DNA from: an uncultured delta proteobacterium
GTDB taxonomy: Bacteria > Desulfobacterota > Binatia > UBA9968
Direction: 5' to 3'
DNA length: 64,000 nucleotides
Assembly (NCBI GenBank): GCA_963745835.1
Contig: CAVUZH010000022.1
Location: forward strand, 384,001 to 448,000
The notes under the pieces are model-generated. The model saw only the letters and a program-made list of their open reading frames with translations. It had not been told where the DNA came from and did not search any database. Position 1 is the first letter of the stretch, and every line of letters starts with the position of its first letter. Positions 19,031-38,633 of the stretch are shown here, piece by piece. The position numbers and the translations under genes were made by a program.

Positions 19031-19053
19031 CCGCGGCCGTTAACCCGTTCTTC

Positions 19054-21572: not shown

Positions 21573-22661
21573 TCACGGAGCTTTCAAATGGAGCAGCTTG
21601 CGAGTGTAGCCTTCAAGCTCCGCGGCCCGGCGCGACGCCGTGTGTTCAGACAGAACGCGCTCACGGGCTCGTTGCCCGATGTGGTCACGTTCTTGGGCGC
21701 TTAGTTCGAATAGGTATTCGAGCGTCTTTTCCGGTGAGTCGGCTACCAGAATCTCATCCCCCACCTTGAAAAAAGCATCCAGCCCCTCCCACCAATCGCT
21801 GATAATCGGGCAACCACAGGCAGCCGCTTCAAACAGCCGGATACTTGGTGAATAACCGGCGTCAACCATATTGGCCCGAGTTATATTGAGAGTAAAAGTT
21901 TGTTGGTTGTAAAAAGCTGGATGCGCGCATGGCGCCAGATGCTCGATGCGCTCAACATTTGTAGGCCACTCGATGGAACTGGGATACTGCGGGCCGGCAA
22001 CCACCATGCGAGCATCGGAGCAACGGCTGGCCGGATCGAGCAGCAGCTCTTGCAGACCCTGTTGGCGATCGGCGCTGTAAGTTCCCATGTAGCCCAAATC
22101 CCACCGCTTTGGCAGCGCCAGCGGTCTGTATAGATCGGCATCGACAGCGCAATACAGCGCTCGCGCCATCGGTGCGCCATAGTGCAGTTCCAGCTGCTCT
22201 AGGATCGGCCCTCCGGTAAACGAGAGATACAGCTGGTATTGTGGGATTAGGTCGGCGGAAAGGTAAAAAGAATCGCCGCGCTCCACAGAAGCCAGAGTCA
22301 CCGGCGTGTCGATATCATAAAAGGCCGTGATGCCGCGGGCGGTTTCCATGACCCACCGGCCAAGCTCAATTCCGTCTGGGACATACGAGCCTACCACCAC
22401 CAGATCGGCGTCGCGCACCATATCGTAAAAACGTTTCCTGAGTTGGTCCAAGCTGCGGTAGAGAAACGTTCCCCCCCGACGCGCATGGATTTGATCGCGA
22501 GCGGCGGCATACCAGGGCATATCGCGTTCGAGAAATAAAACCTGATGGCCGCGCTGTTCGAGTCCGCGCACCAGAGCTCGGTAAGTGGTCGCATGTCCAT
22601 TGCCCCAGGACGAAGTAATCGAAAGACCGAGGATCACAATGTTGAGCGGTTGAGTAGTCAT
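21573..22661 (-). CDS. CgeB-family (GT-B) glycosyltransferase
   Basis: SSWGNGHATTYR, FYDIDTPVT, SPSIRLFEAAACG..ISD, HT..RA. Confidence 0.88.
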   Translation of the reverse strand: MTTQPLNIVILGLSITSSWGNGHATTYRALVRGLEQRGHQVLFLERDMPWYAAARDQIHARRGGTFLYRSLDQLRKRFYDMVRDADLVVVGSYVPDGIELGRWVMETARGITAFYDIDTPVTLASVERGDSFYLSADLIPQYQLYLSFTGGPILEQLELHYGAPMARALYCAVDADLYRPLALPKRWDLGYMGTYSADRQQGLQELLLDPASRCSDARMVVAGPQYPSSIEWPTNVERIEHLAPCAHPAFYNQQTFTLNITRANMVDAGYSPSIRLFEAAACGCPIISDWWEGLDAFFKVGDEILVADSPEKTLEYLFELSAQERDHIGQRARERVLSEHTASRRAAELEGYTRKLLHLKAP

Positions 22662-23731
22662 AGACTCTGCAGCAACGATTCCAGCTCAGCGGCCCGGTGC
22701 GCATAAGTATGCTCGCCGAGGATTCGGCGCAAAGCAGCTTGCCCGATCTCTTTAGCTTGGGCTCTCGTTAAATGACGCAGCTGTTCACCGACCTCGTCGC
22801 CATCGTTGGCAACTAAACACTCGCGGTCCGGCTCGAGAAAATCTTCGATGCCATCCCAAGCATCGGTAATCAGACAGCCGGCGGCGCCGGCGACCTCGAA
22901 CAGACGAGTCGGCGGAGAGTAGCCGCAGCGCGCCATGCTTTCCCGGCAGACATTCAGAACGGCCATGGGCGTTGAATTGAAGGCGTTGTGTGCTGCGGTA
23001 TAGACGTGGCCAAGATAGGCGACATTGGCATAAGCCGGCACCGCATCGTCCCAACCGCTGCCACCGAGAATAAAGCGCATGCGTGGATTGGCTTGGGCCG
23101 GTTTGAAAAAGAATTCGAAGACCCGCGCCTCGCGATCCGGCAGGCGATTGCCGAGAAAGCTCAGCGCGCCGTCATAGCTCGAATCGGCAGGCGCGGGATG
23201 ATGCGTGCGGGGGTCCAACGCGTTGTATATTGGAAAGCATCGCTGCGCGCCAAGTTGCTTATAACTCTGCACCACCGCATCGCCACCGCCATAGGTAAGA
23301 ACCAGATCGTAGAGCGGAATCAGCGAGCGAAACGGATGGGCCTCGTCCCGACCGATTCGTTCCAGTGTCGCCGCGGCATCGACATCCCAAAAGGCAACAA
23401 TGCTGTCAGGGCGGCGCAACTCCAGAACAGTTTGTTCCAGGAGCGCATCGAAGACACCGACGCCGCTGGCCTTCACCAACAAATCCGATTCGCGCGCGGC
23501 TTTCTTGACCATCTCGATAACGGCTGACTCCCCGTCAACCGCATACACCACCGTCTGCGCGTAGGCCGTTTCGGTGAGATCTCGGTGCCGCTGCCGGTCC
23601 CAAGCATCAGGCTCATAAAAAACAATCTGATGCCCCCGCTCAAAGAGCGCGCTCAAAATTCCCCGGTAATAGGTCGCCGCGCCGTTCCAGTACGCCGACA
23701 GCAAACTCGATCCGAAAAACGCAATCTTCAT
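22658..23731 (-). CDS. CgeB-family glycosyltransferase
   Basis: SAYWNGAATYYRG, GNRLPDRE, PTRLFEVAGA, HTYAHRA. Confidence 0.88.
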   Translation of the reverse strand: MKIAFFGSSLLSAYWNGAATYYRGILSALFERGHQIVFYEPDAWDRQRHRDLTETAYAQTVVYAVDGESAVIEMVKKAARESDLLVKASGVGVFDALLEQTVLELRRPDSIVAFWDVDAAATLERIGRDEAHPFRSLIPLYDLVLTYGGGDAVVQSYKQLGAQRCFPIYNALDPRTHHPAPADSSYDGALSFLGNRLPDREARVFEFFFKPAQANPRMRFILGGSGWDDAVPAYANVAYLGHVYTAAHNAFNSTPMAVLNVCRESMARCGYSPPTRLFEVAGAAGCLITDAWDGIEDFLEPDRECLVANDGDEVGEQLRHLTRAQAKEIGQAALRRILGEHTYAHRAAELESLLQSL

Positions 23732-24867
23732 AGGTGCTTCTCGGGCGGTTGCTCCATCGCGTGATCTGATGGGACCGGCGAGTCGATGCGGTGGTAGATC
23801 TCGATCAGTTCGTCGAGCCGGTGGGCGCAGGTATGACGCTGCAGAATTGTCTTGCGCCCATGCGCCGACAATCGGCCGGCGAGTTGAGGATCGGCGAGCA
23901 GACGCTGCAGCTGCCGCTTCATCTCCGCACCGTCACGGGCGACCAGATAATCCTCGCCAGGGGTGAATAGATGTTCGCTGTCTTCCCAGGGCGCGCAAAC
24001 CAGAGGAATGCGGCAGGCCAGCGCTTCAAATGGACGAATGGTCGGAACACCGGGCAAAGCTTTGACGTAGGGCCGGCGCGGGATGTGAACCGTGACTCGG
24101 AAGCGGGCCAATGTGGCGGGCACTTGGAAGTTGGGCAACCAGCCGCCGTACTCGATACACGCGGCTGAAAGCGCTGCCAATGCTTCTGCCGGATAACGGA
24201 CGCCGTAAACGCGCGCTTTGAGACCCAGCGCTTTTACCGGCTCAAGAAGAAACTCATAGAGTTCCGCCGTGCGTTCTTCATCGCCCCAGTTGCCGATCCA
24301 GACCAGATCGCCCTCTTTTTCCTCATCGGGCAGCGGCATGAAAACTCTCGTGTCCGCGGCTTCATGCCACACCCAAACACGCTTGGCACAATTGCGCGAG
24401 CGATAAATTTCCGCAATTGCTTTACCGAAAACGAGAACACCATCATAGTCCGCCAAGTCGTAGGCCGCCATTTTCTCGGGTTCGGTAACGGACCGATGAT
24501 GCGTGTCATGAAACAGCAAGCGGTAATCGCCCTTGATTCTATGGTGCGCGCCGATTCGCCGGACCAAGGCCGGGTCATTCCATTCGTGAACGATGACGAG
24601 ATCGATCCGATCGAGCGCGCGATCCAGATCGAGAGTTGCCGGATCGTAAAAGGTGCTGCGCAAGCCGGGATAGATCTGTCGGAATGCCTCGACCGGCGCT
24701 TGGCCGTGCTCTCGCACTAAATTTGTACGACTCCATCCGTCGGCCGGTTCAAAGATCCGCAGCGTATGGCCGCGCCGCTGAACCTCCCAGGCGACACCGC
24801 GCAAGAAGTGCGCGTTGCCGTGATTCCAGTCCGACACCAGCGAATGAATAAAAAGAGCGATATTCAT
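23728..24867 (-). CDS. CgeB-family glycosyltransferase
   Basis: SDWNHGNAHFLRG, HDTHHR, PTIRPFEALAC, HTCAHR. Confidence 0.88.
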   Translation of the reverse strand: MNIALFIHSLVSDWNHGNAHFLRGVAWEVQRRGHTLRIFEPADGWSRTNLVREHGQAPVEAFRQIYPGLRSTFYDPATLDLDRALDRIDLVIVHEWNDPALVRRIGAHHRIKGDYRLLFHDTHHRSVTEPEKMAAYDLADYDGVLVFGKAIAEIYRSRNCAKRVWVWHEAADTRVFMPLPDEEKEGDLVWIGNWGDEERTAELYEFLLEPVKALGLKARVYGVRYPAEALAALSAACIEYGGWLPNFQVPATLARFRVTVHIPRRPYVKALPGVPTIRPFEALACRIPLVCAPWEDSEHLFTPGEDYLVARDGAEMKRQLQRLLADPQLAGRLSAHGRKTILQRHTCAHRLDELIEIYHRIDSPVPSDHAMEQPPEKHL

Positions 24868-25994
24868 GACGGGTATTCGCCGTGGGTTGTTTCTTCCGAG
24901 AACAGGCCCCGTTGCGCCCGCAGCAGTTTGGCGTAGATCTCCAAATATGCCCGCGCCATCCGCTCCGGTGAAAACGAATCCGCCCGTTTTCTCGCGCGCC
25001 GGGAGAAATCCTCGCGTAAGGATGGGTTTGCAATCAATTCGACAAGCGTCGCGCGAATATGCTCGGGATCGTCCGGTCGAATAAAAAGCGCGGCGTCATG
25101 CCAGATTTCGCGCAGGCTTTCAGTGTCCCCCAAAACCACAGCGCAGCCGCAGAGCGCCGCCTCCAGCGCGGATAAGCCAAACGGCTCGTAGCGAGCCGGC
25201 AAAATAAAAATCGCCGCGCGGCGAAACCACTGCCCGAGCATTTCCGGATCGAGGCGGCCTAGTAAATTCGGACCCTCCACAAGCGCCTGTTTTCCGTCGG
25301 GCGCGCGGCTCTCTCCGGCGGCATAAATCGGCCAGGGAACCTTTCCGACGATCGAGTTCAGGCTCGCAATGTTCTTGGCCTCGTCCCACAGGCGACCGGC
25401 GGTAAAGATGTAGTCTTCCTTTTTCCCGGGAGCGAAGCGCGCGCCGCTGCGACCGTTGTAAATTGGCTCTGCTGCGGCAAAGCGTCCATAATGTTTTTCC
25501 AAGGACGACAGCATCGAGCGGCTAGGCGCCGTCACTAAATCGGCGCCTTGCAGACCCAATCGCACGGCTTCCCGGTAAGATCGCCATTCCGGGCCAGGCG
25601 GCGCGCCTTTGACGGCTTCGAACCACGAGTAAACACACGAGTGGCCGACCACCAGAACCGGAACATTCCAGGGAATGGCGCCGTGGCTATATTGATTTAG
25701 ATGGATCAGGCTTGGTTGAAAGCGCGCTTCTAGATCGAGCAACCATTGTCCGGCGGCTTTCACATCGCTGCACGGCTCGTTCATCCACTCGAGCTTGTAG
25801 CTGCTCTCGCGCAGCTCGACGTTCTGCAAATCGCAAATCAATGCTCGCTCGCCGCGCTCGAGCTGCCTTCCCATGGTTGCCAGCACCACGTTGACGTCTC
25901 TCTTGGCCAGTTCCCGGCAAAGCTCCAGCGAGTATTGCCAAACTCCGCCGATGGGATCGGCGGTCATCAGTATCGGTCGCGTCGGTAACACCAC
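24864..25994 (-). CDS. Glycosyltransferase family 4
   Basis: MTADPIGGVW, AGRLWDEAKN, YEPFGLSALEAA. Confidence 0.9.
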   Translation of the reverse strand: MVLPTRPILMTADPIGGVWQYSLELCRELAKRDVNVVLATMGRQLERGERALICDLQNVELRESSYKLEWMNEPCSDVKAAGQWLLDLEARFQPSLIHLNQYSHGAIPWNVPVLVVGHSCVYSWFEAVKGAPPGPEWRSYREAVRLGLQGADLVTAPSRSMLSSLEKHYGRFAAAEPIYNGRSGARFAPGKKEDYIFTAGRLWDEAKNIASLNSIVGKVPWPIYAAGESRAPDGKQALVEGPNLLGRLDPEMLGQWFRRAAIFILPARYEPFGLSALEAALCGCAVVLGDTESLREIWHDAALFIRPDDPEHIRATLVELIANPSLREDFSRRARKRADSFSPERMARAYLEIYAKLLRAQRGLFSEETTHGEYPS

Positions 25995-26012
25995 TCGCAG
26001 TATTCCTCCCGT

Positions 26013-27065
26013 TCAATCAGAGACATTCTGCCGGTAAATTTCGTCGATTACTTCAGCCACCAGGTGCGCGGGTTCAATCCGCGCATCAAAGGTCGGGTCG
26101 ACGCTCAGCTGCTCGGCCCAGGCAACCGCGGCGCGCCCGCCCCACGGATCCGGGGGCTGGTCGAGAAGCATCCGACTGGTGCCTTGAAAACGTTCGGCAC
26201 GAAAATCGTAGAAAGAACCGCCGACGTTTTTTACGGACAAACCGCCTGCGGTGCCGAAGAAAGATGCGCTAATCAACGCATCGCGTCCCGCCGGCAGTCG
26301 CCAGGAGCAGGCCAGGTTGACGGTCGCGCCGGTCGTCAGATCCAGGCGCGCCAGAGCATAATCTTCGAGAGCGCCTGCCCGCCCCGGCACCGGTCTGCCC
26401 TGGCTGAACAAGCGGCTCGAAACTTTCTCAACGACAGGGAAATCGAGCATCCATAACGCCAGATCAATCAGGTGAATGCCCAGATCGATCATGCAACCGC
26501 CACCGGAAAATTTGCGGTCGTAGTACCAAGCTTTGTCTGGCCCATACGCATTATGAAAGACAAGATCAGCAACATAGATTGTGCCGATCTCCCCTGCGCT
26601 GATCATCTGTTTGATTTTTTGAACGCCGCGAACAAAGCGATAGGACAGGTCGACAGCTAAGAGCCGGTTCACCAGCCGCGCAGCCCGAATCACCCGCGCC
26701 GTCTCATCGGCGCTTCTTCCCAGCGGCTTCTGGCAGAAAACGGCCGTGTTGCTCTGCAGGGCGGCGATAGCTTGCTCGGCATGTAACGCCGTCGGCGTGG
26801 CGATCACCACACCATCGAGCTGCAATTCGAGCAAAGCATCCAGTGACGGCGCCGCCACTGCACCGGGAATTTGCGCGGCAACCTCGCTTGCGGCAGCGGT
26901 ATCGAAATCCGCCACCGCCGCGACTTGGACCGCGCCGCTTTCACAAATCGATTGCAGACGATGGCGGCCGATCCAGCCGACGCCGAGAAAACCCACTCGC
27001 GGCCGTAGTGAGGCGTCAGCAATGGGCAAGCAAGGTTCGGCCGATTTATCAAAGTGTCTAGTCAC
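26013..27065 (-). CDS. Gfo/Idh/MocA NAD(P)-dependent oxidoreductase
   Basis: GTG 27065 overlapping the upstream stop; GFLGVGWIG, IATPTALH, FCQKPL, GGCMIDLGIH. Confidence 0.88.
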   Translation of the reverse strand: MTRHFDKSAEPCLPIADASLRPRVGFLGVGWIGRHRLQSICESGAVQVAAVADFDTAAASEVAAQIPGAVAAPSLDALLELQLDGVVIATPTALHAEQAIAALQSNTAVFCQKPLGRSADETARVIRAARLVNRLLAVDLSYRFVRGVQKIKQMISAGEIGTIYVADLVFHNAYGPDKAWYYDRKFSGGGCMIDLGIHLIDLALWMLDFPVVEKVSSRLFSQGRPVPGRAGALEDYALARLDLTTGATVNLACSWRLPAGRDALISASFFGTAGGLSVKNVGGSFYDFRAERFQGTSRMLLDQPPDPWGGRAAVAWAEQLSVDPTFDARIEPAHLVAEVIDEIYRQNVSD

Positions 27066-27660
27066 TAATTTCTTCCGTGTTGTTGATGCAGAGAACCCGC
27101 GGCCCGTCCTGCTGCATGGCAACGATGCTGATCGATGCCGGACTGACTTCGAGCCGAAGCACAAGATCGAGCGGCATGCCCAAACAATGCGCCAGCGCGC
27201 CGCGGATAACGTCGGCATGACTGATCAGCGCAACGGTCATCGCCGGGTGGCGCCGGCACAGGAGCTCCATCAGGGCAAGCACACGGGCTTGAACCTCGAT
27301 CATCAGCTCGCCACCAGGAATGCGCGTGCAGCTACGCAGCGAATTGAAATCGCGCCATTGGGCGATGCCGCGCAAGTCGTCGAAGCTCTGCCCGCTCCAT
27401 TCGCCATAGTCGATCTCGTCGAGCTGCGGTGCGATCGTGACAGTCTCGCCAGAAAGCTCCGCCAAGAACTCTGCGGTCTCCCGCGCTCTTGGTTGAGGAC
27501 TGCTGTAGATTTTACCGATCCCCAGCTGCTTCAAGGAATGCACCAAGCGTTGGCCCTGAACTTTGCCGGCGGCGCTCAGATGCACGTTCGCATCCCGGCC
27601 GGCAAGACGACTTGGAACGCAGTCGGTGGCAGCGTGCCGGACAAAGATCAACCGTGTCAT
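27058..27660 (-). CDS. Histidine phosphatase family protein
   Basis: ATG 27660; FVRHA, YSSP..RARETA, EIDYGEW, ISHAD. Confidence 0.88.
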   Translation of the reverse strand: MTRLIFVRHAATDCVPSRLAGRDANVHLSAAGKVQGQRLVHSLKQLGIGKIYSSPQPRARETAEFLAELSGETVTIAPQLDEIDYGEWSGQSFDDLRGIAQWRDFNSLRSCTRIPGGELMIEVQARVLALMELLCRRHPAMTVALISHADVIRGALAHCLGMPLDLVLRLEVSPASISIVAMQQDGPRVLCINNTEEISD

Positions 27661-28367
27661 GGCGCGCCACATAGCTCGGCGCAGAGCTCGGTCAATGAAC
27701 TGACCACCTGGACTGTTGCCGGGCGTTGCGTTCGGCGTCGATCGAGCCAAACGCCCCGCATGCCCGCTGCCTGGCTCGCCAGCGCATCGACGTGAAGGCG
27801 ATCGCCGACATAGATCGATTGTTCGGCCGCACAACCGGCGATTCGGCAGGCAGCGCGAAAAATATCGGGATGTGGCTTAGCGGCGCCCACCTCCTGTGAC
27901 ACCACAGTCACCGCAAAGAAAGCCGCGATGCCGGTTTCTGCCAGCTTGCGCTTTTGGTGCTCGGCGCTGCCGTTGGAAATGATGCCGATAGGGTGCTGCG
28001 ATAACGCTTGCAGGCAAGGCAGCACGTCGTCGAACAGAGTCCAATGCCGGCGATAGTGCCGCTCGTAGAGCGCAAAGCAGTCATCGGCTTCGCGATCGGA
28101 GAGCTCCCAACCGATGCGACCGAACAACTCGCGCACTCGCAACCGGCGCTGCTCTTCGCTGGTAATGACGCCGGCGAAGAACGCGCGCGCATGCTTGTCG
28201 CGCAAGAAATCCCAAATCCGGCAGAAGCTGACCACCGAATAATTTCGACCCAGCGAATCGTGATAGACCGCCAGCAACTCGCGCGCAGCCGCTGCTTCGG
28301 CTTTTCGCTGGTCAATCAGGGTCTGATCGATATCGAAGAAGATCATCATTGCTGCGCAAGGTTTCAA
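27657..28367 (-). CDS. HAD-superfamily hydrolase (subfamily IA)
   Basis: FDIDQTL, IISNG, KPHPDIF, YVGD..D; start may be ATG 28349. Confidence 0.88.
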   Translation of the reverse strand: MKPCAAMMIFFDIDQTLIDQRKAEAAAARELLAVYHDSLGRNYSVVSFCRIWDFLRDKHARAFFAGVITSEEQRRLRVRELFGRIGWELSDREADDCFALYERHYRRHWTLFDDVLPCLQALSQHPIGIISNGSAEHQKRKLAETGIAAFFAVTVVSQEVGAAKPHPDIFRAACRIAGCAAEQSIYVGDRLHVDALASQAAGMRGVWLDRRRTQRPATVQVVSSLTELCAELCGAP

Positions 28368-28413
28368 ATTGATTCGAGTGAGCCCCTGAATGCCGCCCTG
28401 CTTTCCTGCTAGA

Positions 28414-31123: not shown

Positions 31124-31875
31124 GCCTTGATCTCCTGAAGTTCTGAGCGCTGCTCGGAACCGCTGAGCAGCCGGATCGCTTCGCGATAGCCGTACAGAGT
31201 GCCCACATCGACATAAGCGCTGCCGGCGCGGACGCCCCACGCCTGACCGCCTTCGCCGAGATAGGCATTGACCAGAGTGCCTACGTACTCGTCGGCGCGC
31301 CCACGCCGGCACCACAACTCATGCAGCTTGATCATGACCGAACCGGGCATCTGGAAGGCGCCCCAGACCCAGTGCGATAACGGCTCACGCGATTTGACCC
31401 GGATCTGGCGCACGCAACCCACGTCGTCGGTCAGAACGGCATCGAATAATTCTGGACGGCTCACGGGAAAAAGCAGAAACGATAAAGCATCGCGCGGCAG
31501 TGAGCAGAAACCATCTTCTGGAAACCAGATGGTATCGGGCAGGCCGATCATCACCGGATCATCGGCGCCGATTAGCGGCAGCGCGCAGAACAGCGCGTCG
31601 CACAAACCTGACGTCTGGGGCTGCACAACATAACACAAACGCGCAGGCCCGAAGCTGGCGCCGTAGTATTCGAGAATGTCACATTTGCCGGGCGAGATAA
31701 TGAAGCAGATTCGGCTGGCGCCGGCCCGAACCATGCGTTCCATAATGTATTCGCTGACCGCCCGAGGCCGCTCGGTCTCGCCATCGAAGCGGCTCCCTAC
31801 CGGCAGCAGTTCTTTGGAAAACGCCAGCGGTTGAATTCGGCGGCCGGCACCGGCGGCCGGAATGATTCCCCACAT
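31120..31875 (-). CDS. Sugar-phosphate nucleotidyltransferase (RmlA-like)
   Basis: GIIPAAGAGRRIQPL..SKELLPV, GLPD, YVDVGT. Confidence 0.88.
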   Translation of the reverse strand: MWGIIPAAGAGRRIQPLAFSKELLPVGSRFDGETERPRAVSEYIMERMVRAGASRICFIISPGKCDILEYYGASFGPARLCYVVQPQTSGLCDALFCALPLIGADDPVMIGLPDTIWFPEDGFCSLPRDALSFLLFPVSRPELFDAVLTDDVGCVRQIRVKSREPLSHWVWGAFQMPGSVMIKLHELWCRRGRADEYVGTLVNAYLGEGGQAWGVRAGSAYVDVGTLYGYREAIRLLSGSEQRSELQEIKA

Positions 31876-31877
31876 TC

Positions 31878-33002
31878 TCAGGCTTCTCCCCGCAGGACAC
31901 GGCAATTTTCTGCGGCGCCCACAAGCGGCTCCGGCCCATGAGCCGCAACGCTATCGAGTATGGCTTCCAGTTGCCGCGCCCTTCTGGCGGCGCAATGCTC
32001 CTCCATAGCGCGTTGCCGCGCGCGCCCGGCAATGCGCGCCAGTTGAGCATCGCTCAATTCCAACGCTGCCATAACATCGGCAGTTTGAGTCGCTACGAGA
32101 ATCTCTTCGCCCGGTTGAAAAAAACTTTCCAGACCGTCCCAACAGTCGGTGACGACCGGCGTGCCGCATGCCGCGGCTTCGAAGAGGCGCCCCGACGGGC
32201 AATAGCCTGACTGCGCCATGGCGCGACGGGTGACGTTGAGAGTCAGGCGTGATGACGAGTAAAGCGCCGGATGATCCGGCGGGGCGATGTGGCGCACGAA
32301 AAAAAGGTTTTGCAGCCAAGCGAACGCCGGCGGGTACTGCGCTCCGGCGATTAGAAAACGCCGCTCCGGCAGGCGCCGCGCCGGCTCGAGAAAGAGCGCG
32401 TTGAGCATTGCTTGGCGATCATCGGCGTAAGTGCCGATATACGACAAGTCGGCGCGGTAGCTTTCCCGCGCCATTACCGGTCGATGCACAGCGGGATCGA
32501 CACTGCCGTAAAGCGCCACCGCCCGCTTGGCGCCGAGCCGGCTCTGGAGCTCCAGCAGCGCGCGCCCGCCGGTAAAACTCAAGACGATGTCAAAATCGCG
32601 CAATCCCGAAGCGCCGATGTAACCGACGCCATGACCGGCTTCGATCCGTTCCAAGGTCACCGGGGTGTCGAGATCATAGAAAACCCTCAAGGGCCGCGAG
32701 CTGACAACGACCTCGGTAGCGGCGATCCCATCCGGACAATAGGACGTCACCATCGCCACCTCGGCATCGGCCAGATGCTGCCGGGCTTGGGAGAGCGCTT
32801 CACTCCAGGTCTCATAAAGAATGAGCTTGCCGCCGGGAATGTCGTGAAAATCGCGGTGCGCCGCATAATAGGCAACGTTCTTTTCGAAAAAAATCACTTG
32901 GTGCCCCAGGCGCGCCAACTCCCGACACAAGCCGCGCCAAACCGTAGCATGGCCGTTGCCCCAGGATGAGCTGATCGTCAGGCCAAAAATAACCAGCTTC
33001 AT
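31878..33002 (-). CDS. CgeB-family glycosyltransferase
   Basis: SSWGNGHATVWRG, FYDLDTPVT, PSGRLFEAAACG. Confidence 0.88.
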   Translation of the reverse strand: MKLVIFGLTISSSWGNGHATVWRGLCRELARLGHQVIFFEKNVAYYAAHRDFHDIPGGKLILYETWSEALSQARQHLADAEVAMVTSYCPDGIAATEVVVSSRPLRVFYDLDTPVTLERIEAGHGVGYIGASGLRDFDIVLSFTGGRALLELQSRLGAKRAVALYGSVDPAVHRPVMARESYRADLSYIGTYADDRQAMLNALFLEPARRLPERRFLIAGAQYPPAFAWLQNLFFVRHIAPPDHPALYSSSRLTLNVTRRAMAQSGYCPSGRLFEAAACGTPVVTDCWDGLESFFQPGEEILVATQTADVMAALELSDAQLARIAGRARQRAMEEHCAARRARQLEAILDSVAAHGPEPLVGAAENCRVLRGEA

Positions 33003-33061
33003 TTTTCCGCCATTCGCAGTATTCCGGATCGCACGCTTGAGGATTCGTTCATGCGTTGTCG

Positions 33062-34186
33062 TTAAGCTCGCTTTCTGACCGGCCGCGGCGTTGCTCTGAC
33101 GGTTGTCGATTGATGATTGCGAATGAATGCTTCGGTGCGCTCGCGCGCTTCGTTATCGGTAAATTGCTGCGGTGGCGATTTCATAAAGTAACTCGACGGG
33201 CCGATCACGGCGCCGCCCATACCGCGGTCGAGGGCCAGTTTGGCGCAGCGCACCGCGTCGATCACGACGCCCGCAGAATTGGGCGAATCCCAAACTTCGA
33301 GCTTCACCTCGCAGTTGAGCGGCACGTTGCCGAAGGTGGTGCCTTCCAGGCGGATGTAGCACCACTTGCGGTCGTGCAGCCACGGCACGTAGTCGCTCGG
33401 ACCGACATGCGCATCATCGCTCGACATTGGGTAATCGAGCTGGCTGGTCACCGCGTTGGTTTTGGAAATTTTTTTCGATTCCAGTCGCTCGCGTTCGAGC
33501 ATGTTGAGGAAGTCGGTGTTGCCGCCGAAATTCAGTTGATAGGTTCGATCCAGGCGCACGCCGCGCTCGCGAAACAGGTTCGCCAGTATCCGGTGCGTAA
33601 TCGTCGCGCCGAGTTGCGACTTAATGTCGTCGCCGATGATCGGCAGGCCGCGCTCTTTAAAGCGCTTACGCCAATAGGGCTGTGAGGCGATGAATACCGG
33701 AATGCAATTGACGAACGCGCATCCAGCTTCGAGGATCTGCTCGACGTACCACTTGGTCGCCATTTCGGAACCCACCGGCAGGTAAGACACAACCACATCG
33801 GTGCGTGTGGAACGCAGCGTTCCGACGATATCGCTGGTTGAGCCCGGCGCCTTGCGGATTTTTTGGCTCAAATATCTGCCGAGACCGTCATGGGTCATGC
33901 CGCGCCGAACTTCTACGCCGCTGCGCGGCACATCGGTAAAGCGGTAGGTGTTGTTCGGTTCGGCGAAAATCGCCTCGGACAGGTCCTTGCCGACTTTGTT
34001 GCTATCGATATCGAACGCGGCGCTGAATTCGACATCACGCACGTGATAGCCGCCTAGGCTCACGTGCATCAGACCGGGCACAAACTGATGGGGATCGGCG
34101 CTTTTGTAAAATTGCACTCCCTGAACCAGGGACGAGGCGCAGTTCCCGACGCCGATCACGGCGACTCGCACTTTTCTGTTGCTCAT
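33062..34186 (-). CDS. ino1: myo-Inositol-1(3)-phosphate synthase
   Basis: [56 protein letters not shown]. Confidence 0.94.
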
Positions 34187-35187
34187 TCTTGGACGCTCGC
34201 CTGATTGGGGCGCGGTTGTATCCATGATTTTAGAAATCCTTCCGGCCGCTCATCGAGCGCGGCAAACGCGGCGCTGATGTTCTCGAGTGGAAACCCGTGA
34301 GTGTAGAGAGATTCGGTCTCCAACGCCCCTTGCGCCACCCGCTCGGCCGCTGCTTTCATCCCTGCGACATAGCGGCGCGGATCGCGCTCGTGAGCGTTGA
34401 TGACATCGATGCCGCGCCAGTTCCAAAGCTGCATATTCACCCGGCGCGGCGCGTCCTGATGATAGCCCGCAATCACCAGCCGGCCGCGAACACCGACCAG
34501 CTCGCTTGCCAGATCGATCGTCTCCTGTTCGCCGGCGGCTTCGATGACACACGAGCAGCCCGATCCATCGGTCCGTTCCATGACCCGCGCAATCACGGCC
34601 GTCTGATCGCTACTAGCCAATGCCTCTGCAGCGCCGTAGCGGCGCGCCACGTGCAACGCGAACGGGCGTCGCGAAATAGCGAGAACATGCGCGCCCGCAG
34701 CAACAGCAAGCTGGATCAGGAGCGCGCCCAAAAATCCGATCCCCACTACCGCGACCGTCTGCTCCGGTTCGATGCCACAGCGGCGAAAAATATTCATCGC
34801 GCAACCCAACGCCTCGCCCGGGAATATTTCAGTAGTTGCAGGAACGCGCACCAGGCTGTCGGCGCGGGCGATGTCGTACTCGGCGTAAGCTCGGCTGGAT
34901 AAGAAGGCAACCCGCTCTCCGGGCCGGACGCCATCGACCTGCGCCCCGACCAAATCAACCCGCCCCCATCCCTCATGTCCGGGCGCGCCGGGCTCGATCG
35001 GGTAGTGAAACCAGGGCCGGCCGCGCCACAGCGGTAAGTTCGATCCGCAGACGCCGCAACCATCCACTTGAATCCGCACTTCGCCGGCACCCGGTTCGGG
35101 CACCGCGATCTCATCGATTTCGACCTGCCGCGGCGCGACGATTCGCGCCGCGCGCATGGTCCGGCGATTAGAATGATCGAGGTTCAT
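34183..35187 (-). CDS. Zinc-dependent medium-chain (polyol-type) dehydrogenase
   Basis: GVCGSN, GHEGWG, GIGFLG; lacks the four-Cys structural Zn loop. Confidence 0.88.
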
Positions 35188-35190
35188 GGG

Positions 35191-37383
35191 TCAATACGGC
35201 TGCGAGGCCTTGCCCGCTCGTTCTTGTCGATCTTGCGCGACCAGGCCGCTTCTCATTCCAGTTTTCCGTCTGAACGATCCGTTGCGGGAGGCGCCGCCGA
35301 CAACACGAACTTGTTCCAGACCGCGGGCGCGGCGCAACCATTCATAAAGTTTCTGCACGCCTTCTTCGGGATCGACGCGCGGCGCCCAACCGGTTGCGTC
35401 CTGGAACTTGCGGGTATCGGAAACATAGTAACGCTGATCTCCGGCGCGCCAGTCACTGCTTTCGCAGGCCGGGGCTTCGCCATGAAGCTCGACGATCATG
35501 TCGACGAGCTCTAAAAGACTCAGCGCGCGCGGCGGCCCGCCGCCCATGTTGAAAGCCTGCCCGGAAATGTTGCGCATCTGCGAGCGCGCCGCCAAAAAGG
35601 CTTCTACCAAATCGTCGATGTAAAGCACGTCACGCACCTGCATACCGTCGCCGTAGAGCGTCAGCGGGCGGTCTTCGAGCGCACAGATTAAGAAGTGCGC
35701 CACCCAACCCTGATCTTCGTTGCCCATTTGATGCGGGCCATAGATGCAGCTCATGCGAAACACCGCCGCAGGGAGTCCGAAGGTTCGGGCGTAGTCGATG
35801 ACGTACTCGTCGGCCGCTCCCTTGGAGCAGCCGTAAGGGCTGTGCAGATCCAGCGGCCGCGATTCGTTGATCCCATGCTCGCGCAAAAACGGATCGAGCG
35901 GGTGATAAGCGCCTTCTTCGCAGCTCAGTCGGACATTCTCGAGGCCGCCATAGACTTTATTGGTCGAGGTAAATATTAGCGGCGCGGGGTCATCGGCACC
36001 GCGTAATGCTTCGAGCAAGTTGAGTGTTCCAAGCGCGTTGACATCAAAATCGTGGCGCGGGTTGGCCAAGCTGGTGGTGACCGCGACTTGCGCCGCGAAA
36101 TGAAATACCTGTTTGGCATTACGCACCGCGCGGCGCAGCGCGTAAGGATTGCGCACGTCGGCAAACTCCACCTGGACTCGCTTTGCGTGCGTTTCCAACA
36201 ACCATTTCAAATTGCGCTCAACACCCGGGCGTGACAAGTTATCGAACACCAAAACACGCTCGCCGTCGCTCGCCAGACGATGCGCCAAATTGGTGCCGAT
36301 AAAACCGGCGCCGCCGGTGATGACCACCGGTTGAGTCGGCTTGGCGGCGCTGCGGCGCGCGCCAGGATGCGGTTCGAGCGCTTCACACACCGCGTCCAGT
36401 CCGCCCTCACCCCACAGTCGCGCCAGTAATTTCTCGCTACCGTCGCTGCGGCGCAGCCCGAAATGATAATCCCGATCGTCGGCATGAAAGCCATCACGCG
36501 TCGAAAATTCCGGGTCGAGATCGCGCGCCCCGAGCCAGTAAAGTCGCTCCACCGGCGCTTCCAAAGCCCGGGCGAAGGCGCGCAATTGTTCGTACTCGTC
36601 GTGGCGCCAAGTGGAATATCCGGTGGCGCTGATCCAGATTTCAGCGCCGGAACGGTGCTGCGTCAAAATCTGCTGCACGCTCTGAACCACCGCCGGCCAA
36701 CTCTCCCAATTAGCTTCAGAGGTGCCCGGAAATCTATGAATACCGACGGCATCGATGTACTGCATCACGCCGCGCCGGAACATCAATTCGAGCCAGTTAG
36801 GGTCGAACGCATTGAGCCCGGCAAGCAATGTACGCTTGCCGCGTCGCTGCGCCCAATAAGCGGCGCCGCCGATCATGGCACAGAATGTTTGCCAGTGCGG
36901 ATCGAGGGTGCGATCCCATTCACTCAACCGATCGGGCTCGTTCCATAGCTCGATCCATTCAAAACAATTGCCCAGACGGGTGATCAGCACGTCGATAAAA
37001 TCGCCGTAGGCCTTGGGATCCCAGGGCGGAGCCGAGACACGCGGCGCCACCGCCTGCGATAACGGCGTGTAGAGCACGCACGGGATCAGATTCACTTGCC
37101 TAGCCAGATGCGGCAAGAGCCAACTGTACCAGGTTTCGCCTTCGGCGCTGTCCCAATCGGCCCACGACACCGTGGTACGCAGGTCGGCGACTCTCAATTC
37201 GCGCAGATCGGCGAGAACTTTTTCAACCCCGGCGCGATCGCCGATGCGAAAGCTTTCGACGACTCCGATCCGGACTCCGGCGCCATCGTCGGCTTCGGCG
37301 ATTTGGGCGCGCAAACTGGGATGCTTGCAGACATCTGCCTTGCTGCCTGCCGCGCCGTTTCGGCCGGCCCTCGCCTTCTTCAC
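35191..37383 (-). CDS. Fusion of a GH-A-like domain and an NAD-dependent epimerase (CDP-paratose 2-epimerase-like)
   Basis: N-terminal LRTTVSW, WNEP, GIHRFP; C-terminal TGGAGFIG, AAQVAVTTS, STNKVYG, YGCSK, DQGWVAHF. Confidence 0.88.
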   Translation of the reverse strand: MKKARAGRNGAAGSKADVCKHPSLRAQIAEADDGAGVRIGVVESFRIGDRAGVEKVLADLRELRVADLRTTVSWADWDSAEGETWYSWLLPHLARQVNLIPCVLYTPLSQAVAPRVSAPPWDPKAYGDFIDVLITRLGNCFEWIELWNEPDRLSEWDRTLDPHWQTFCAMIGGAAYWAQRRGKRTLLAGLNAFDPNWLELMFRRGVMQYIDAVGIHRFPGTSEANWESWPAVVQSVQQILTQHRSGAEIWISATGYSTWRHDEYEQLRAFARALEAPVERLYWLGARDLDPEFSTRDGFHADDRDYHFGLRRSDGSEKLLARLWGEGGLDAVCEALEPHPGARRSAAKPTQPVVITGGAGFIGTNLAHRLASDGERVLVFDNLSRPGVERNLKWLLETHAKRVQVEFADVRNPYALRRAVRNAKQVFHFAAQVAVTTSLANPRHDFDVNALGTLNLLEALRGADDPAPLIFTSTNKVYGGLENVRLSCEEGAYHPLDPFLREHGINESRPLDLHSPYGCSKGAADEYVIDYARTFGLPAAVFRMSCIYGPHQMGNEDQGWVAHFLICALEDRPLTLYGDGMQVRDVLYIDDLVEAFLAARSQMRNISGQAFNMGGGPPRALSLLELVDMIVELHGEAPACESSDWRAGDQRYYVSDTRKFQDATGWAPRVDPEEGVQKLYEWLRRARGLEQVRVVGGASRNGSFRRKTGMRSGLVAQDRQERAGKASQPY

Positions 37384-38492: not shown

Positions 38493-38618
38493 TCAACAAC
38501 TCAGTTCCTCTCGGATTCTTATCCCTGGTGTGGCTACTCTCGGGACAGAACCAAGTTTTTGGAAACGCGAAAGTGATATGAGGTAATGTTTTTTCAGCGC
38601 GTGTTGGCTGGTTGGGCA

Positions 38619-38633
38619 GCAACAAATATGCCA
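38619..38633 (-). promoter_or_regulatory. Sigma-54 -24/-12 promoter of the glycan cluster
   Basis: Minus strand TGGCATATTTGTTGC, about 127 nt upstream of ATG 38492. Confidence 0.75.

Follow-up and report, generated by a model that had tools for sequence, protein, structure and literature searches.

The locus considered here raises the question of what a tightly packed run of sugar-modifying genes in an uncultured delta proteobacterium makes, and whether it makes one compound. Within the window (the whole stretch of 64,000 nt that was analysed), the gene cluster consists of 17 ORFs on the minus strand, running from 38492 to 21573 (16,920 nt). We consider it reasonably probable that its 17 soluble enzymes build and trim one cytoplasmic, inositol-based O-methylated oligosaccharide, and that the cluster is a laterally acquired cassette variant with a sigma-54 promoter. 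The features are listed below, with start codons refined using HMM match ranges and homologue alignment.

38618..38633, minus strand: sigma-54-type -24/-12 motif TGGCAT-N5-TTGCT, located 126 nt ahead of the operon's first start codon
37380..38492, minus strand: G01, SDR, NDP-hexose 4-epimerase-like, 370 aa (PF01370, 181.8 bits)
35191..37383, minus strand: G02, fusion protein, 730 aa (GH-A-like N-domain and SDR C-domain)
34183..35187, minus strand: G03, MDR zinc-type dehydrogenase, 334 aa (PF00107 and PF08240)
33062..34225, minus strand: G04, inositol-3-phosphate synthase Ino1 (TIGR03450, 549 bits; PF01658, 126 bits)
31878..33002, minus strand: G05, CgeB-type GT-B glycosyltransferase, lineage 'a', 374 aa (PF13524, 129.8 bits)
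31120..31905, minus strand: G06, sugar-1-phosphate nucleotidyltransferase, distantly RmlA-like, 261 aa (alternative start 31875)
30344..31093, minus strand: G07, TIGR04290 SAM-dependent methyltransferase, 249 aa (381.4 bits, cut-off 300)
29313..30344, minus strand: G08, predicted circularly permuted clan GH-A glycoside hydrolase, 343 aa (alignment and structure model)
28956..29237, minus strand: G09, conserved protein, 93 aa, without a family match
28414..28959, minus strand: G10, GNAT acyltransferase, 181 aa (PF00583, 50.8 bits)
27657..28367, minus strand: G11, HAD-IA phosphatase, 236 aa (PF13419, 86 bits)
27058..27660, minus strand: G12, histidine phosphatase superfamily, branch 1, 200 aa (PF00300, 153 bits)
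26013..27065, minus strand: G13, Gfo/Idh/MocA oxidoreductase, about 350 aa (PF01408 and PF22725)
24864..25994, minus strand: G14, GT4 glycosyltransferase, 376 aa (PF00534 and PF13439)
23728..24867, minus strand: G15, CgeB-type glycosyltransferase, lineage 'b' (PF13524, 125 bits)
22658..23731, minus strand: G16, CgeB-type glycosyltransferase, lineage 'c' (PF13524, 128.4 bits)
21573..22661, minus strand: G17, CgeB-type glycosyltransferase, lineage 'd', final gene of the operon (PF13524, 125.9 bits)

With the refined starts, neighbouring genes overlap, by 1 to 8 nt, at nine of the 16 junctions, and the widest gap measures 75 nt; the glycosidase start overlaps the methyltransferase stop codon by 1 nt, and Ino1 likely starts at Met14 (34186), giving an ATGA overlap with G03. 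The initial annotation had described 17 co-directional, mostly overlapping genes, as is seen here. Its gene set stands, but several of its starts do not, as the methyltransferase, glycosidase, histidine phosphatase, Gfo/Idh/MocA and probably Ino1 genes begin downstream of the longest-ORF start. Every gene class that it had assigned was recovered by profile search (NCBIfam and Pfam HMMs), including TIGR04290 at 381.4 bits and four PF13524 (CgeB-type) proteins at 125 to 130 bits. Within the cluster, the coding strand shows no sigma-70-like promoter. The absence of a flippase, polymerase, ABC exporter, priming transferase and obvious signal peptide was likewise borne out, since none of the 17 products matched the corresponding families, ABC transporters included, by HMM and a 19-residue Kyte-Doolittle scan found no membrane span or signal-peptide-like hydrophobic stretch in any of the 17 proteins (the highest mean, 2.44, falls on the Rossmann motif of the MDR enzyme, and the remaining proteins reach at most 1.66). 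The cluster is confirmed as one real operon of soluble sugar-building enzymes.

Ino1 matches TIGR03450 over its full length, under the equivalog cut-off of 638, and no other protein encoded in the genome matches PF01658. The best solved relative of G01 is the UDP-glucose 4-epimerase 4zrm (161.9 bits), followed by MoeE5, WbgU and WbpP, while the C-terminal SDR domain of the fusion protein (about 35305-36330) matches 9rl0 at 291.4 bits and 1orr at 277.5 bits, the next best score being 128.4. RmlA structures match the nucleotidyltransferase over its full length (E 1e-9). The best NCBIfam matches of the two dehydrogenases are scyllo-inosose 3-dehydrogenase IolM for G03 (96 bits, far below the cut-off of 450) and inositol 2-dehydrogenase IolG for G13 (105.8 bits, under the cut-off of 355). 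The methyltransferase is present in one copy in the genome, and among solved structures it comes closest to ToxA, CmoB, the sugar O-methyltransferase EvdMO1 and WbdD. An HMM search for a family matching G09 returned none.

The predicted glycosidase is of particular interest. Residues 22-204 of ORF 29313-30401 (G08) align to positions 142-319 of the fusion protein N-domain, and residues 215-314 to positions 38-139; these swapped blocks confirm the circular permutation that had been proposed. Glu10 (NEP) and Glu112 (SEVG) are invariant in all 16 glycosidase sequences, and the permuted enzyme is modelled as an 8-fold beta/alpha barrel. The model of a non-permuted relative has PslG as its best Foldseek match (E 1.1e-13, against 6.4e-9 for the next) and superposes on it with Z 22.2-22.7 and rmsd 3.3-4.0 over 292-301 residues, GH1 enzymes giving Z about 20.6, while the GH39 Pfam model weakly matches three of the 16 family members. 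These models place G08 in clan GH-A, with PslG as its nearest match. The extra N-terminal domain of the fusion protein is about 345 aa long, and its GH-A-like part (about 36427-37272) is homologous to G08. It reads ISATG at the position of ITETG in R. etli, and this half has lost its nucleophile.

PslG belongs to an exopolysaccharide operon, and clusters for an ordinary surface polysaccharide (O-antigen, capsule or EPS) typically hold epimerases, a nucleotidyltransferase and numerous glycosyltransferases; the priming transferase, flippase or exporter would then lie elsewhere in the genome. In rhizobia the cassette is located on megaplasmids, which are rich in polysaccharide loci. We nevertheless consider a surface polysaccharide unlikely. 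None of the 17 products is a membrane protein, and the additional families that recur in 80 related loci, drawn from several phyla, include no membrane or export protein. Neither glycosidase-type domain has a signal peptide, and one of them forms a single chain with a cytoplasmic NAD enzyme. Clusters of that kind do not usually contain Ino1, and general-stress promoters are found in relatives. The earlier proposal of a cytoplasmic product fits these missing membrane and export parts.

In a tree of CgeB-type proteins, the four glycosyltransferases fall into separate clades a, b, c and d (support 0.82, 1.0, 0.98 and 0.998, respectively), a test that is partly circular as clade labels were taken from best BLAST hits. 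In our preferred explanation they would be anciently separated lineages. The gene adjoining the operon (20631-21419) encodes a Ser/Gly-rich secreted protein with a signal-peptide-like N-terminus, carries its own sigma-54 motif and has high word depth in soil RNA libraries. CgeB is thought to decorate a Bacillus spore-surface protein, and with four PF13524 enzymes in the cluster and this neighbour, with its motif and word depth, as candidate target, glycosylation of a protein can be envisaged. This is highly improbable, as the neighbour is not among the families recurring in related loci, its N-terminus is signal-peptide-like while the enzymes are all cytoplasmic, and Ino1, the phosphatases and the glycosidase would be left unexplained.

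The initial annotation held that TIGR04290 marks a conserved neighbourhood, which agrees with at least 586 relatives confirmed by tblastn among the 600 pattern matches listed. Of 80 loci fetched, 47 were complete over 20 kb and 33 incomplete. The genes do co-occur in other genomes, and the counts over the 47 complete loci separate core from accessory genes: the methyltransferase and the permuted glycosidase are present in all 47, CgeB-a in 40, the nucleotidyltransferase in 39, the histidine phosphatase in 38, Ino1 in 35 (missing in 12), CgeB-d in 33, CgeB-b and CgeB-c in 25 each, GT4 in 24 and the G09 hypothetical in 12 (39-59% identity). GNAT and HAD had been regarded as additions of this variant, and neither occurs in any complete locus (0/47), with a GNAT-like match in two of the 33 incomplete ones. 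The B12-binding radical-SAM gene TIGR04295, taken earlier to be optional and missing here, is indeed present in 13 related loci (705 bits, cut-off 400) and absent from the cluster and the entire genome (best 97.8 bits). Its gene content makes the cluster one version of the TIGR04290/TIGR04295 cassette, an uncharacterised gene set that occurs in hundreds of soil bacteria. No product had been named for it, and the open-access and bioRxiv literature searched contained no characterised product or pathway.

Parts of the cassette are also found separately. Sinorhizobium copies carry the methyltransferase with the glycosyltransferase block and lack a glycosidase of the G08 family, R. etli likewise holds this type of block together with the methyltransferase, and three of five same-phylum loci examined carry the methyltransferase, glycosidase and phosphatase without the glycosyltransferase block. 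Since the Sinorhizobium and same-phylum loci carry the halves apart, the two halves may make separate things. A small core (Ino1, phosphatase, methyltransferase, glycosyltransferase 'a', nucleotidyltransferase and glycosidase) might yield a methyl-inositol or glycosyl-methyl-inositol solute, resembling plant ononitol, pinitol and galactinol, while a second block (epimerases, GT4 and three CgeB-type enzymes) might make a separate glycan. Ino1, phosphatase and methyltransferase suffice on paper for methyl-inositol, and one of the three core-only genomes has an adjoining Ino1. Still, two products seem rather unlikely to us: the methyltransferase accompanies either block, which is easier explained by one shared compound; the core lies amid the second block in a single tightly coupled operon; the glycosidase is closest to an endo-acting polysaccharide hydrolase, which suggests a longer chain; and the solved enzymes closest to the methyltransferase count O-methyltransferases of sugars, but none of cyclitols, among them.

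In terms of inositol, the preferred single-product reading draws on several neighbourhoods. In one same-phylum genome another Ino1 subtype (PF07994 and PF01658) lies directly before the methyltransferase, glycosidase and phosphatase, and on S. meliloti pSymB Ino1 is about 2 kb from the cassette copy. Other cassette variants carry a PIG-L deacetylase, GT4 and GNAT, a set typical of GlcNAc-inositol chemistry. Ino1 occurs in 183 of 301 genomes of the phylum and is thus too commonplace for genome-level co-occurrence to be informative.

The TIGR04290 family exceeds its cut-off in only six of these 301 genomes. The methyltransferase is 66-71% identical to copies from Alphaproteobacteria and Verrucomicrobia (among the matches listed) and 47-49% identical to four of the five same-phylum copies, and the GC content of the cluster is 0.58-0.62, against 0.50-0.56 in the flanks. 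Phylum rarity, identities and GC together suggest that the cluster was acquired laterally.

The cluster had been described as sigma-54-linked. An exact motif does precede it, but this is specific to the present genome, as the motif is absent at five same-phylum loci (the operon start of one lying outside the fetched range). The window contains three exact matches to TGGCAY-N5-TTGCW against 0.20 expected, a number reached in none of 100 shuffles, and the genome contains 48 against about 13 expected by base composition, 41 of them outside long ORFs, which make up 69% of the genome. The genome encodes rpoN (446.7 bits, cut-off 277), and a Pfam scan of 59 ORFs in the window revealed no gene for a sigma-54 activator. 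In our preferred explanation the operon would be read from this sigma-54 promoter.

Relatives point to general-stress control. Of 39 related loci, 21 carry the EcfG-type motif GGAAC-N16/17-CGTT between -400 and +60 relative to Ino1, and 18 of these have it at -18 to -99, against about 0.3 expected by chance from the opposite-strand rate of 22 matches per 1.455 Mb; these relatives use another sigma factor, and many of the loci are close kin and non-independent. In published arrays of M. extorquens, 9 of the 12 genes META1_0137-0148 were at least 2-fold lower in a strain lacking six ecfG genes, while only one of the 12, META1_0140, is in the regulon list at the study's own threshold. EcfG dependence of this copy (now Methylorubrum) is modest, and its homology to the cluster is apparent only. 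The flanking genes of the cluster encode BON, DUF3618, Dps-like and topoisomerase IB proteins, and the S. medicae copy is likewise accompanied by BON and DUF3618. Four soil RNA libraries contain contigs of ≥95% identity that cover 20-27 of the 30 bins of 20000-39900 and bridge several gene junctions, with DNA carry-over possible and strand not shown. The stress induction suggested in the initial annotation fits all four lines, and a stress link of the cassette is supported.

These results also bear on whether the product could be a secondary metabolite of the cyclitol type, a pseudo-oligosaccharide resembling an antibiotic, with GNAT for self-protection. Ino1, inositol-dehydrogenase-like enzymes, glycosyltransferases, a methyltransferase, phosphatases and GNAT, along with the B12 radical-SAM enzyme of relatives, form a set that recalls aminocyclitol pathways. 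We regard this as extremely improbable, as no aminotransferase, kinase, transporter or resistance pump was found in the cluster by HMM, and the core proteins are 57-81% identical across phyla and hundreds of species (among the matches listed). This conservation, together with general-stress regulation in relatives, points to physiology rather than a niche antibiotic.

Under the single-product reading, Ino1 would supply inositol-3-phosphate and the RmlA-like nucleotidyltransferase an NDP-hexose, which the 4-epimerase-like and tyvelose-2-epimerase-like SDRs would convert to further hexoses. The five glycosyltransferases (four CgeB-type and one GT4) would add one sugar each, probably starting from inositol or inositol phosphate, and the phosphate would be removed by the histidine phosphatase, joined in this variant by the HAD phosphatase. 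The TIGR04290 enzyme would O-methylate the cyclitol or a sugar, and GNAT would attach an acyl group. A ring hydroxyl may be oxidised, reduced or epimerised by the MDR and Gfo dehydrogenases, and the PslG-like permuted glycosidase may cut or recycle chains. The product would be a defined methylated inositol oligosaccharide, serving as a cytoplasmic protectant against drought, osmotic stress or starvation. We infer its acceptor, sugars, chain length and methylated position.

Several components have known counterparts. Like PslG of Pseudomonas aeruginosa (GH39, Psl exopolysaccharide operon), G08 is predicted to have a clan GH-A barrel with NEP and the nucleophile Glu and is encoded within a glycan-synthesis operon, but identity is 17-20%, and G08 is circularly permuted, lacks a signal peptide or anchor and adjoins a methyltransferase gene. 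The SDR half of the fusion protein matches CDP-tyvelose 2-epimerase (1orr, 9rl0) over its full length with more than twice the next score; this resemblance is by sequence, the half is fused to a degenerate glycosidase-like domain, and HMM searches revealed no other 3,6-dideoxyhexose pathway genes in the cluster. Four proteins match PF13524, the family of Bacillus subtilis CgeB, for which we know of no defined reaction, but they lack a spore context and their four lineages are conserved across Gram-negative phyla.

Among pathways, mycothiol biosynthesis (Ino1, MshA, phosphatase, MshB, MshC, MshD) shares the order of inositol-3-phosphate, GT-B glycosylation and dephosphorylation, with GNAT in the cluster and PIG-L deacetylase in other cassette variants. 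However, the models score far below their cut-offs (MshA 44 versus 462, MshD 22.8 versus 163, BshA 48 versus 274), and MshB and the MshC ligase are absent from the cluster. The mycobacterial polymethylated polysaccharides MMP and MGLP are cytoplasmic glycans whose synthesis involves soluble glycosyltransferases along with O-methyltransferases and an endo-hydrolase, and the MGLP primer passes through a phosphorylated intermediate that is dephosphorylated by a histidine-phosphatase-type enzyme; the primers are glucosylglycerate or methyl-mannoside, not inositol, the pathways are actinobacterial, and their likeness to the proposed pathway lies in pathway features. Plant cyclitol protectants (ononitol/pinitol, galactinol and the raffinose-family oligosaccharides) employ a stress-induced Ino1, an inositol O-methyltransferase and a glycosyl-inositol synthase, with chains extended by glycosidase-family transglycosylases; the likeness is in pathway logic only, as the enzyme families differ.

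The TIGR04290/TIGR04295 cassette, which we take to be the one named 'rhizo-twelve', shares with the cluster Ino1, the nucleotidyltransferase, the permuted glycosidase, two SDRs, GT4 and CgeB-type glycosyltransferases, and local gene orders are as in Bradyrhizobium, Rhodoplanes, Verrucomicrobia and Bryobacterales loci. In contrast, the cluster has 17 genes rather than 12, lacks TIGR04295 and adds GNAT and HAD, its core sits inserted within the glycosyltransferase/epimerase block, and its promoter motif is of the sigma-54 type instead of the EcfG type.

The cluster consists of 17 ORFs, all read in one direction on the minus strand from 38492 to 21573. With gene starts refined using HMM match ranges and homologue alignment, nine of the 16 junctions are overlaps of 1-8 nt, and gaps reach 75 nt at most. 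Listed as they are transcribed, the genes encode the following proteins.

G01, minus: SDR, epimerase type
G02, minus: 730-aa fusion of an unassigned N-terminal domain and a second SDR
G03, minus: MDR dehydrogenase
G04, minus: Ino1
G05, minus: CgeB-type glycosyltransferase (lineage 'a')
G06, minus: nucleotidyltransferase
G07, minus: TIGR04290 methyltransferase
G08, minus: protein without a Pfam match at the default threshold
G09, 28956-29237, minus: 93-aa protein, no family
G10, minus: GNAT
G11, minus: HAD phosphatase
G12, minus: histidine phosphatase
G13, minus: Gfo/Idh/MocA oxidoreductase
G14, minus: GT4 glycosyltransferase
G15-G17, minus: three further CgeB-type glycosyltransferases (lineages 'b', 'c' and 'd')

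The initial annotation, which described these 17 co-directional genes, proved correct in every item with respect to ORF layout, HMM assignments and the lack of membrane segments. None of the 17 proteins contains a hydrophobic segment suitable for a membrane span or a signal peptide, and all parts of the system are soluble. No family of priming transferases, flippases, polymerases or exporters was found among the 17 proteins or in the window flanks, and no membrane or export family recurs in related loci; for the cluster, this agrees with the earlier claim that export components are missing. A surface polysaccharide whose export genes lie elsewhere in the genome is a reading that we regard as distinctly unlikely. 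Rfam families were likewise not detected in the cluster or its leader.

The methyltransferase G07 matches TIGR04290 with 381.4 bits over model positions 2-226 of 226, which is above the curated cut-off of 300 bits and bears out its proposed membership in this family. It scored 382.5 bits in a scan of the genome and is the sole such gene in those 7.28 Mb; Ino1 is also present in a single copy. Profile matches of the methyltransferase include ToxA, CmoB, the sugar O-methyltransferase EvdMO1 and WbdD. The nucleotidyltransferase G06 aligns to RmlA over its full length (E 1e-9), and G01 comes nearest to UDP-hexose 4-epimerases. For the SDR half of G02, the best full-length matches are structures of CDP-tyvelose 2-epimerase (291.4 and 277.5 bits, the next match having 128.4), and it is therefore predicted to be CDP-tyvelose 2-epimerase-like.

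Glycosyltransferase 'a' gave a single match among solved structures, with E 0.039. In a phylogeny of 162 sequences (137 CgeB-type proteins and 25 GT4 proteins as outgroup), each of the four CgeB-type paralogues falls into a clean clade of its own (support 0.82 to 1.0), which suggests four old, distinct jobs, the clade test being partly circular because clade labels were taken from best BLAST hits. That these enzymes serve protein glycosylation is in our view very improbable. Mycothiol equivalog models gave scores well short of membership (MshA 44.1 against 462.5, MshD 22.8 against 163.1), and PIG-L or ligase families were not matched by any of the 17 proteins. A cyclitol secondary metabolite seems extremely improbable as the product.

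The start of G08 lies at 30344, one base inside the methyltransferase stop codon, and the same 1-nt stop/start overlap occurs in a second genome of the phylum (G038). The protein had been described as a permuted glycosidase, and indeed it aligns as a circular permutant of the N-terminal domain of G02. Glu10 (WNEPNN) and Glu112 (SEVG) are invariant in all 16 family sequences compared, from several phyla, as are many aromatic residues; clan GH-A enzymes have the acid/base glutamate after strand 4 (NEP) and the nucleophile glutamate after strand 7, a pattern with which these residues agree. All 16 members match PF11790 weakly (best E 5.5e-6), with G08 itself at 18.6 bits, under the gathering score of 21. 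The GH39 model is matched by three of them (best E 0.05), GH53 by four and GH5 by one, and by sequence models G08 belongs to no named GH family.

An AlphaFold model of G08 (pLDDT 76) forms a barrel of eight beta/alpha units. Foldseek searches with this permuted model returned generic TIM barrels only, the best being tagatose epimerases (E 4e-6, TM 0.35), and in VIA-align, run over 48,161 chains, scores stayed on a flat plateau of Z 11-14; we attribute both outcomes to the permutation defeating sequential alignment. A sequence search of solved structures with G08 found nothing below E 0.27. We therefore folded a natural non-permuted relative from G038 instead (4-sequence alignment, pLDDT 74). 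This stand-alone protein of 330 aa, encoded after the methyltransferase (locus L099, 9857-11646), keeps both catalytic glutamates. Foldseek placed Pseudomonas aeruginosa PslG first (E 1.1e-13, TM 0.69), the next entry having 6.4e-9 and all later matches being clan GH-A enzymes; VIA-align against PslG gave Z 22.2-22.7 and an rmsd of 3.3-4.0 over 292-301 residues, with GH1 enzymes at about 20.6. These structure matches make the predicted placement in clan GH-A firm, and the modelled nearness to GH39 (PslG) is nominal. The permuted G08 and its non-permuted relative offer a naturally occurring pair in which to study how a TIM-barrel enzyme tolerates circular permutation.

The N-terminal domain of G02 reads ISATG, with alanine instead of glutamate at the nucleophile position, and by its sequence is degenerate. 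Two Bryobacterales relatives of this domain have neither glutamate, and the Rhizobium etli protein keeps both; Pfam gave no match for the domain or two of its relatives.

The TIGR04290 methyltransferase family is large and its sequences are very conserved: all 8000 scored candidates had E <=1e-30 and identity across phyla is around 70%. In a scan of one genome per species, at least 586 relatives were confirmed among the first 600 pattern matches. The best 80 loci of these were kept, and gene counts were taken from the 47 with complete 20-kb flanks. Among the matches listed, the closest named record, which carries the label Candidatus Binatia, is a metagenome-assembled genome at 98% identity, and others come from Alphaproteobacteria (Bradyrhizobium, Mesorhizobium, Rhodoplanes, Azospirillum, Acetobacteraceae, Inquilinus) and, beyond these, from Verrucomicrobia, Acidobacteria, Sorangium, Rhodothermales and Armatimonadota.

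Occurrence of cluster genes in 47 related loci. The set holds the loci closest to the query, and the two counts of 47 in part reflect this selection.
Methyltransferase: 47/47
G08 homologue: 47/47
Glycosyltransferase 'a': 40/47
Nucleotidyltransferase: 39/47
Histidine phosphatase: 38/47
Ino1: 35/47
Glycosyltransferase 'd': 33/47
Glycosyltransferase 'b': 25/47
Glycosyltransferase 'c': 25/47
GT4: 24/47
G02-type SDR: 20/47
G01-type SDR: 15/47
93-aa protein G09: 12/47 (39-59% identity)
MDR: 4/47
Gfo: 3/47
GNAT: 0/47
HAD: 0/47

The cluster shares with the cassette both the order and the set of Ino1, nucleotidyltransferase, methyltransferase, glycosidase, SDR pair, GT4 and CgeB-type glycosyltransferases. 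The B12 radical-SAM enzyme TIGR04295 was found in 13 related loci (705 bits, cut-off 400) and is therefore an optional member; as the initial annotation stated, it is absent from the cluster, and it is also absent from the genome, where the best match reached 97.8 bits against the cut-off of 400. Recurrent extras in relatives are a PIG-L deacetylase, GT4, an Acetyltransf_6 GNAT, a second methyltransferase, phosphopentomutase and an ECF sigma factor, and several unassigned families in these loci are, from their positions, probably antisense ORFs of GC-rich genes. G09 is conserved apparently in its N-terminal half only and is sometimes encoded divergently, upstream of Ino1.

The cassette is also found on 132 plasmid or chromid records, including pSymB of Sinorhizobium meliloti 1021, p42b of R. 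etli, and replicons of Azospirillum and Roseomonas mucosa. The Sinorhizobium and R. etli form comprises Gfo, MDR / SDR, SDR, GT4, three glycosyltransferases, a UDP-glucuronate-decarboxylase-like SDR and the methyltransferase; in Sinorhizobium it has no glycosidase of the G08 family at all. On p42b a cytochrome oxidase cluster adjoins the cassette, which may be coincidence. Phosphopentomutase (DeoB, 521 bits) is encoded just after the glycosidase in three related loci (L016, L032, L065) and in other Bradyrhizobium, Rhodoplanes and Xanthobacteraceae loci, and the UDP-glucuronate-decarboxylase-like SDR of Rhizobiaceae copies takes the matching position; together they give a hint that the sugars of those variants may include a pentose.

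Within the phylum the cassette is rare and modular. Only six of 301 sampled genomes, this one included, have a TIGR04290 gene over the cut-off. One same-phylum locus carries both the core and the epimerase/glycosyltransferase block, and in another this block is followed by the methyltransferase and the stand-alone non-permuted G08 relative. Three further loci have only the methyltransferase, a G08 homologue and the histidine phosphatase as a common set; in one of these, glycosyltransferase 'a' and the nucleotidyltransferase are present too, and another has Ino1 of a different subtype directly upstream. The methyltransferase is the sole constant part of the cassette. Genome-level co-occurrence of Ino1 and the methyltransferase is uninformative, since 183 of the 301 genomes encode Ino1. 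Two separate products, with the core making a small methyl-cyclitol solute, would be one way to read this modularity; we consider that reading rather unlikely. The window methyltransferase shares 66-71% identity with copies from Alphaproteobacteria and Verrucomicrobia among the matches listed, and 47-49% with four of the five same-phylum copies. Together with the rarity in the phylum and the raised GC content of the cluster (0.58-0.62 versus 0.50-0.56 in its surroundings), this identity across phyla fits lateral acquisition.

An exact TGGCAY-N5-TTGCW motif lies on the coding strand at 38618-38633, 126 nt before the first ATG, with -24 GG and -12 GC elements at canonical spacing. The window contains three exact sigma-54 motifs where 0.20 are expected, and none of 100 shuffles reached three; the genome contains 48 where about 13 are expected from base composition. 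Outside long open frames, which make up 69% of the genome, lie 41 of these 48, and rpoN is present. The excess, the placement outside frames and rpoN together indicate that the motif behaves like a real promoter class in this organism. No sigma-54 activator (PF00158) was found among 59 window ORFs scanned, and the motif is absent from the five same-phylum cassette loci (in one, the operon start lies outside the fetched range). The sigma-54 link of the initial annotation is therefore credible for this copy, but it is no general property of the cassette. No inverted repeat was found in the 544-nt upstream region, and a scan for sigma-70 promoters and terminators did no better than shuffles.

The other two motifs and the genes next to the operon are as follows.

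20566-20581, plus: exact sigma-54 motif of the gene below
20631-21419, plus: Ser/Gly-rich secreted protein with PG_binding_1, converging on the operon end
39037-41837, plus: DUF3182 / alpha-beta hydrolase / DUF2071 trio, divergent from the operon promoter region and not recurrent beside the cassette in other genomes
42333-42348, plus: third exact sigma-54 motif
42355-42552, plus: 65-aa Cys-rich ORF 7 nt after the third motif, a spacing too short for a normal leader, so that the ORF may be leaderless or mis-called

The case for a link to stress rests on promoters in relatives, on published arrays and on the genomic neighborhood, and for this genome it is indirect. An EcfG-type motif (GGAAC-N16/17-CGTT) occurs within -400..+60 of the Ino1 start in 21 of the 39 loci with enough upstream sequence, at -18 to -99 in 18 of these 21, although many loci are close kin and the count overstates their independence. 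The opposite strand of these related loci, 1.455 Mb, holds 22 matches in all, from which about 0.3 are predicted by chance. By record titles, loci with the close motif are mostly from Alphaproteobacteria; in Mesorhizobium loci the motif either sits at about -355 or is lacking, and it is absent from Verrucomicrobia, Rhodothermales and Armatimonadota loci.

Francez-Charlot et al. 2016 compared wild type and ecfG mutants by arrays after ethanol (PMC4814048). In their table S2, 12 consecutive genes of Methylorubrum extorquens, META1_0137 to 0148, are a putative copy that fits the cassette by annotation and length: an epimerase, two dehydratase-like SDRs, a radical SAM protein, four glycosyltransferases, Ino1 and three genes annotated as hypothetical (786, 789 and 939 nt). 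Their tabulated fold changes in the sextuple mutant are, in order, -2.30, -2.93, -2.01, -2.29, -2.55, -2.44, -2.38, -1.46, -1.57, -2.64, -1.83 and -3.07, with nine of the 12 down at least 2-fold and the flanking genes 0135 and 0149 at +1.38 and +1.10. Only META1_0140 (Ino1) of the 12 meets p<0.005 and enters the regulon sheet (PMC4814048). Term searches of the main text of stress-regulon papers returned no mention of inositol or the cassette, and among the open-access and bioRxiv papers listed for Ino1, the general stress response and EcfG, none contained the Ino1 term.

The surroundings of the operon include BON, hemerythrin, Dps-like, BrkB, DUF3618 and topoisomerase IB genes, among the following features.

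15895-16248: BON
17383-18075: hemerythrin
18120-18716: ferritin/Dps-like
43478-44380: BrkB/YihY
44508-45338: DUF3618
51963-56677: GT4 / GDE-MGH1-like debranching-type hydrolase / HAD trio
57442-58590: topoisomerase IB
58634-60256: alpha-amylase-family enzyme

The Sinorhizobium medicae copy also adjoins DUF3618, BON and nutrient-deprivation genes, and in Sphingomonas melonis the tabulated EcfG regulon includes genes for topoisomerase IB, glycosyltransferases and glycosidases (PMC6599016). The regions 14888-20152 and 43478-60256 look like a stress island, and the set at 51963-56677 resembles genes for glycosylglycerate-type solutes. Farther out, alternative complex III genes (ActD, NrfD-like, multihaem cytochromes; 2594-14466, plus) are followed by SCO1 and cytochrome c oxidase II, I and III, and an erythromycin-esterase-family protein (PF05139, 424 bits; 61502-62596, plus), unrelated to the operon, is encoded near the window end.

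Near-identical sequence occurs in 20 public runs, six of which are soil metatranscriptomes. When four of these six were compared with 20000-39900, contigs of at least 95% identity covered 20 to 27 of 30 bins; most are at 95-99% identity and so derive from close relatives. Contigs span the junctions G05/G04, G04/G03 and G03/G02. Summed word depth varies greatly from bin to bin, with 284, 163, 64 and 39 in the Ino1 bin and single or low double digits in most other operon bins; 24648-25975 and 26640-27303 have no contigs in most runs, gaps from which we draw no conclusion. The bin of the Ser/Gly-rich protein (20631-21419) has depths of 225, 117, 25 and 0, among the highest in three of the four libraries. 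Since such contigs carry no information on strand or ends, and DNA may be present in RNA libraries, these data are only consistent with soil transcription of a near-identical operon.

The data establish the enzyme families, a conserved core, the solubility of every component and how relatives are regulated. We propose, as a reading that is moderately probable as a whole, a cytoplasmic, stress-linked pathway for an O-methylated oligosaccharide built on inositol; our confidence is much higher that this is an orphan glycan cassette, cytoplasmic and linked to stress, than it is for any specific chemistry. Ino1 would supply inositol-3-phosphate and the nucleotidyltransferase an NDP-hexose, which the two epimerase-type SDRs may convert to C4 and C2 epimers. 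The five glycosyltransferases would then add defined sugars, probably starting from inositol(-phosphate), a proposal that likens them to MshA, which glycosylates inositol-phosphate in mycothiol synthesis. The phosphatases would strip phosphate, the methyltransferase O-methylate, the GNAT acylate and the MDR and Gfo enzymes alter a ring hydroxyl, and the PslG-like glycosidase may cut or recycle the chain. More tentatively, and with the balance against it, soil bacteria of many phyla could share a stress-induced pathway for cytoplasmic protectants of a hitherto unrecognised class: short inositol-based oligosaccharides that are O-methylated, and in some lineages C-methylated as well, and that are trimmed by a dedicated circularly permuted glycosidase. 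If so, they would be the bacterial equivalent of cyclitol glycosides in plants and of polymethylated polysaccharides in mycobacteria. If the product is a new protectant against drying or salt, it would matter for how well inoculants and soil bacteria survive.

In the open-access and bioRxiv literature searched, we found no product or characterisation of the TIGR04290/TIGR04295 cassette, which places it among the more widespread clusters without a published product there. Among the bacteria that carry it are root-nodule genera (Bradyrhizobium, Mesorhizobium, Sinorhizobium), plant-growth promoters such as Azospirillum and the skin commensal Roseomonas mucosa, as well as Sorangium, Verrucomicrobia and Acidobacteria. 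Conservation of the core proteins is unusually high, and alphaproteobacterial copies have general-stress promoters. The cluster would define activities for CgeB-type glycosyltransferases, with known substrates, and for the TIGR04290 and TIGR04295 methylases, as well as a new glycosidase family with permuted and non-permuted forms. This copy adds that the cassette would work without the radical-SAM enzyme, that it seems rewirable to sigma-54 and that it is apparently transcribed in soil.

The mycobacterial polymethylated polysaccharide pathways (ManT, MeT1/MeT3, MmpH; MGLP) resemble the cassette in logic only. The closest known system is the TIGR04290/TIGR04295 neighborhood itself, which is database-defined and functionally empty; derived here are the predicted likeness of the glycosidase to PslG, its occurrence in permuted and non-permuted form, the loss of the nucleophile in the fused domain and the tyvelose-2-epimerase-like SDR. 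Compared with that neighborhood, the present copy lacks the radical-SAM enzyme and has a GNAT and a HAD protein, its core is nested inside the glycosyltransferase/epimerase block, and it has a putative sigma-54 promoter and a host of Binatia type.
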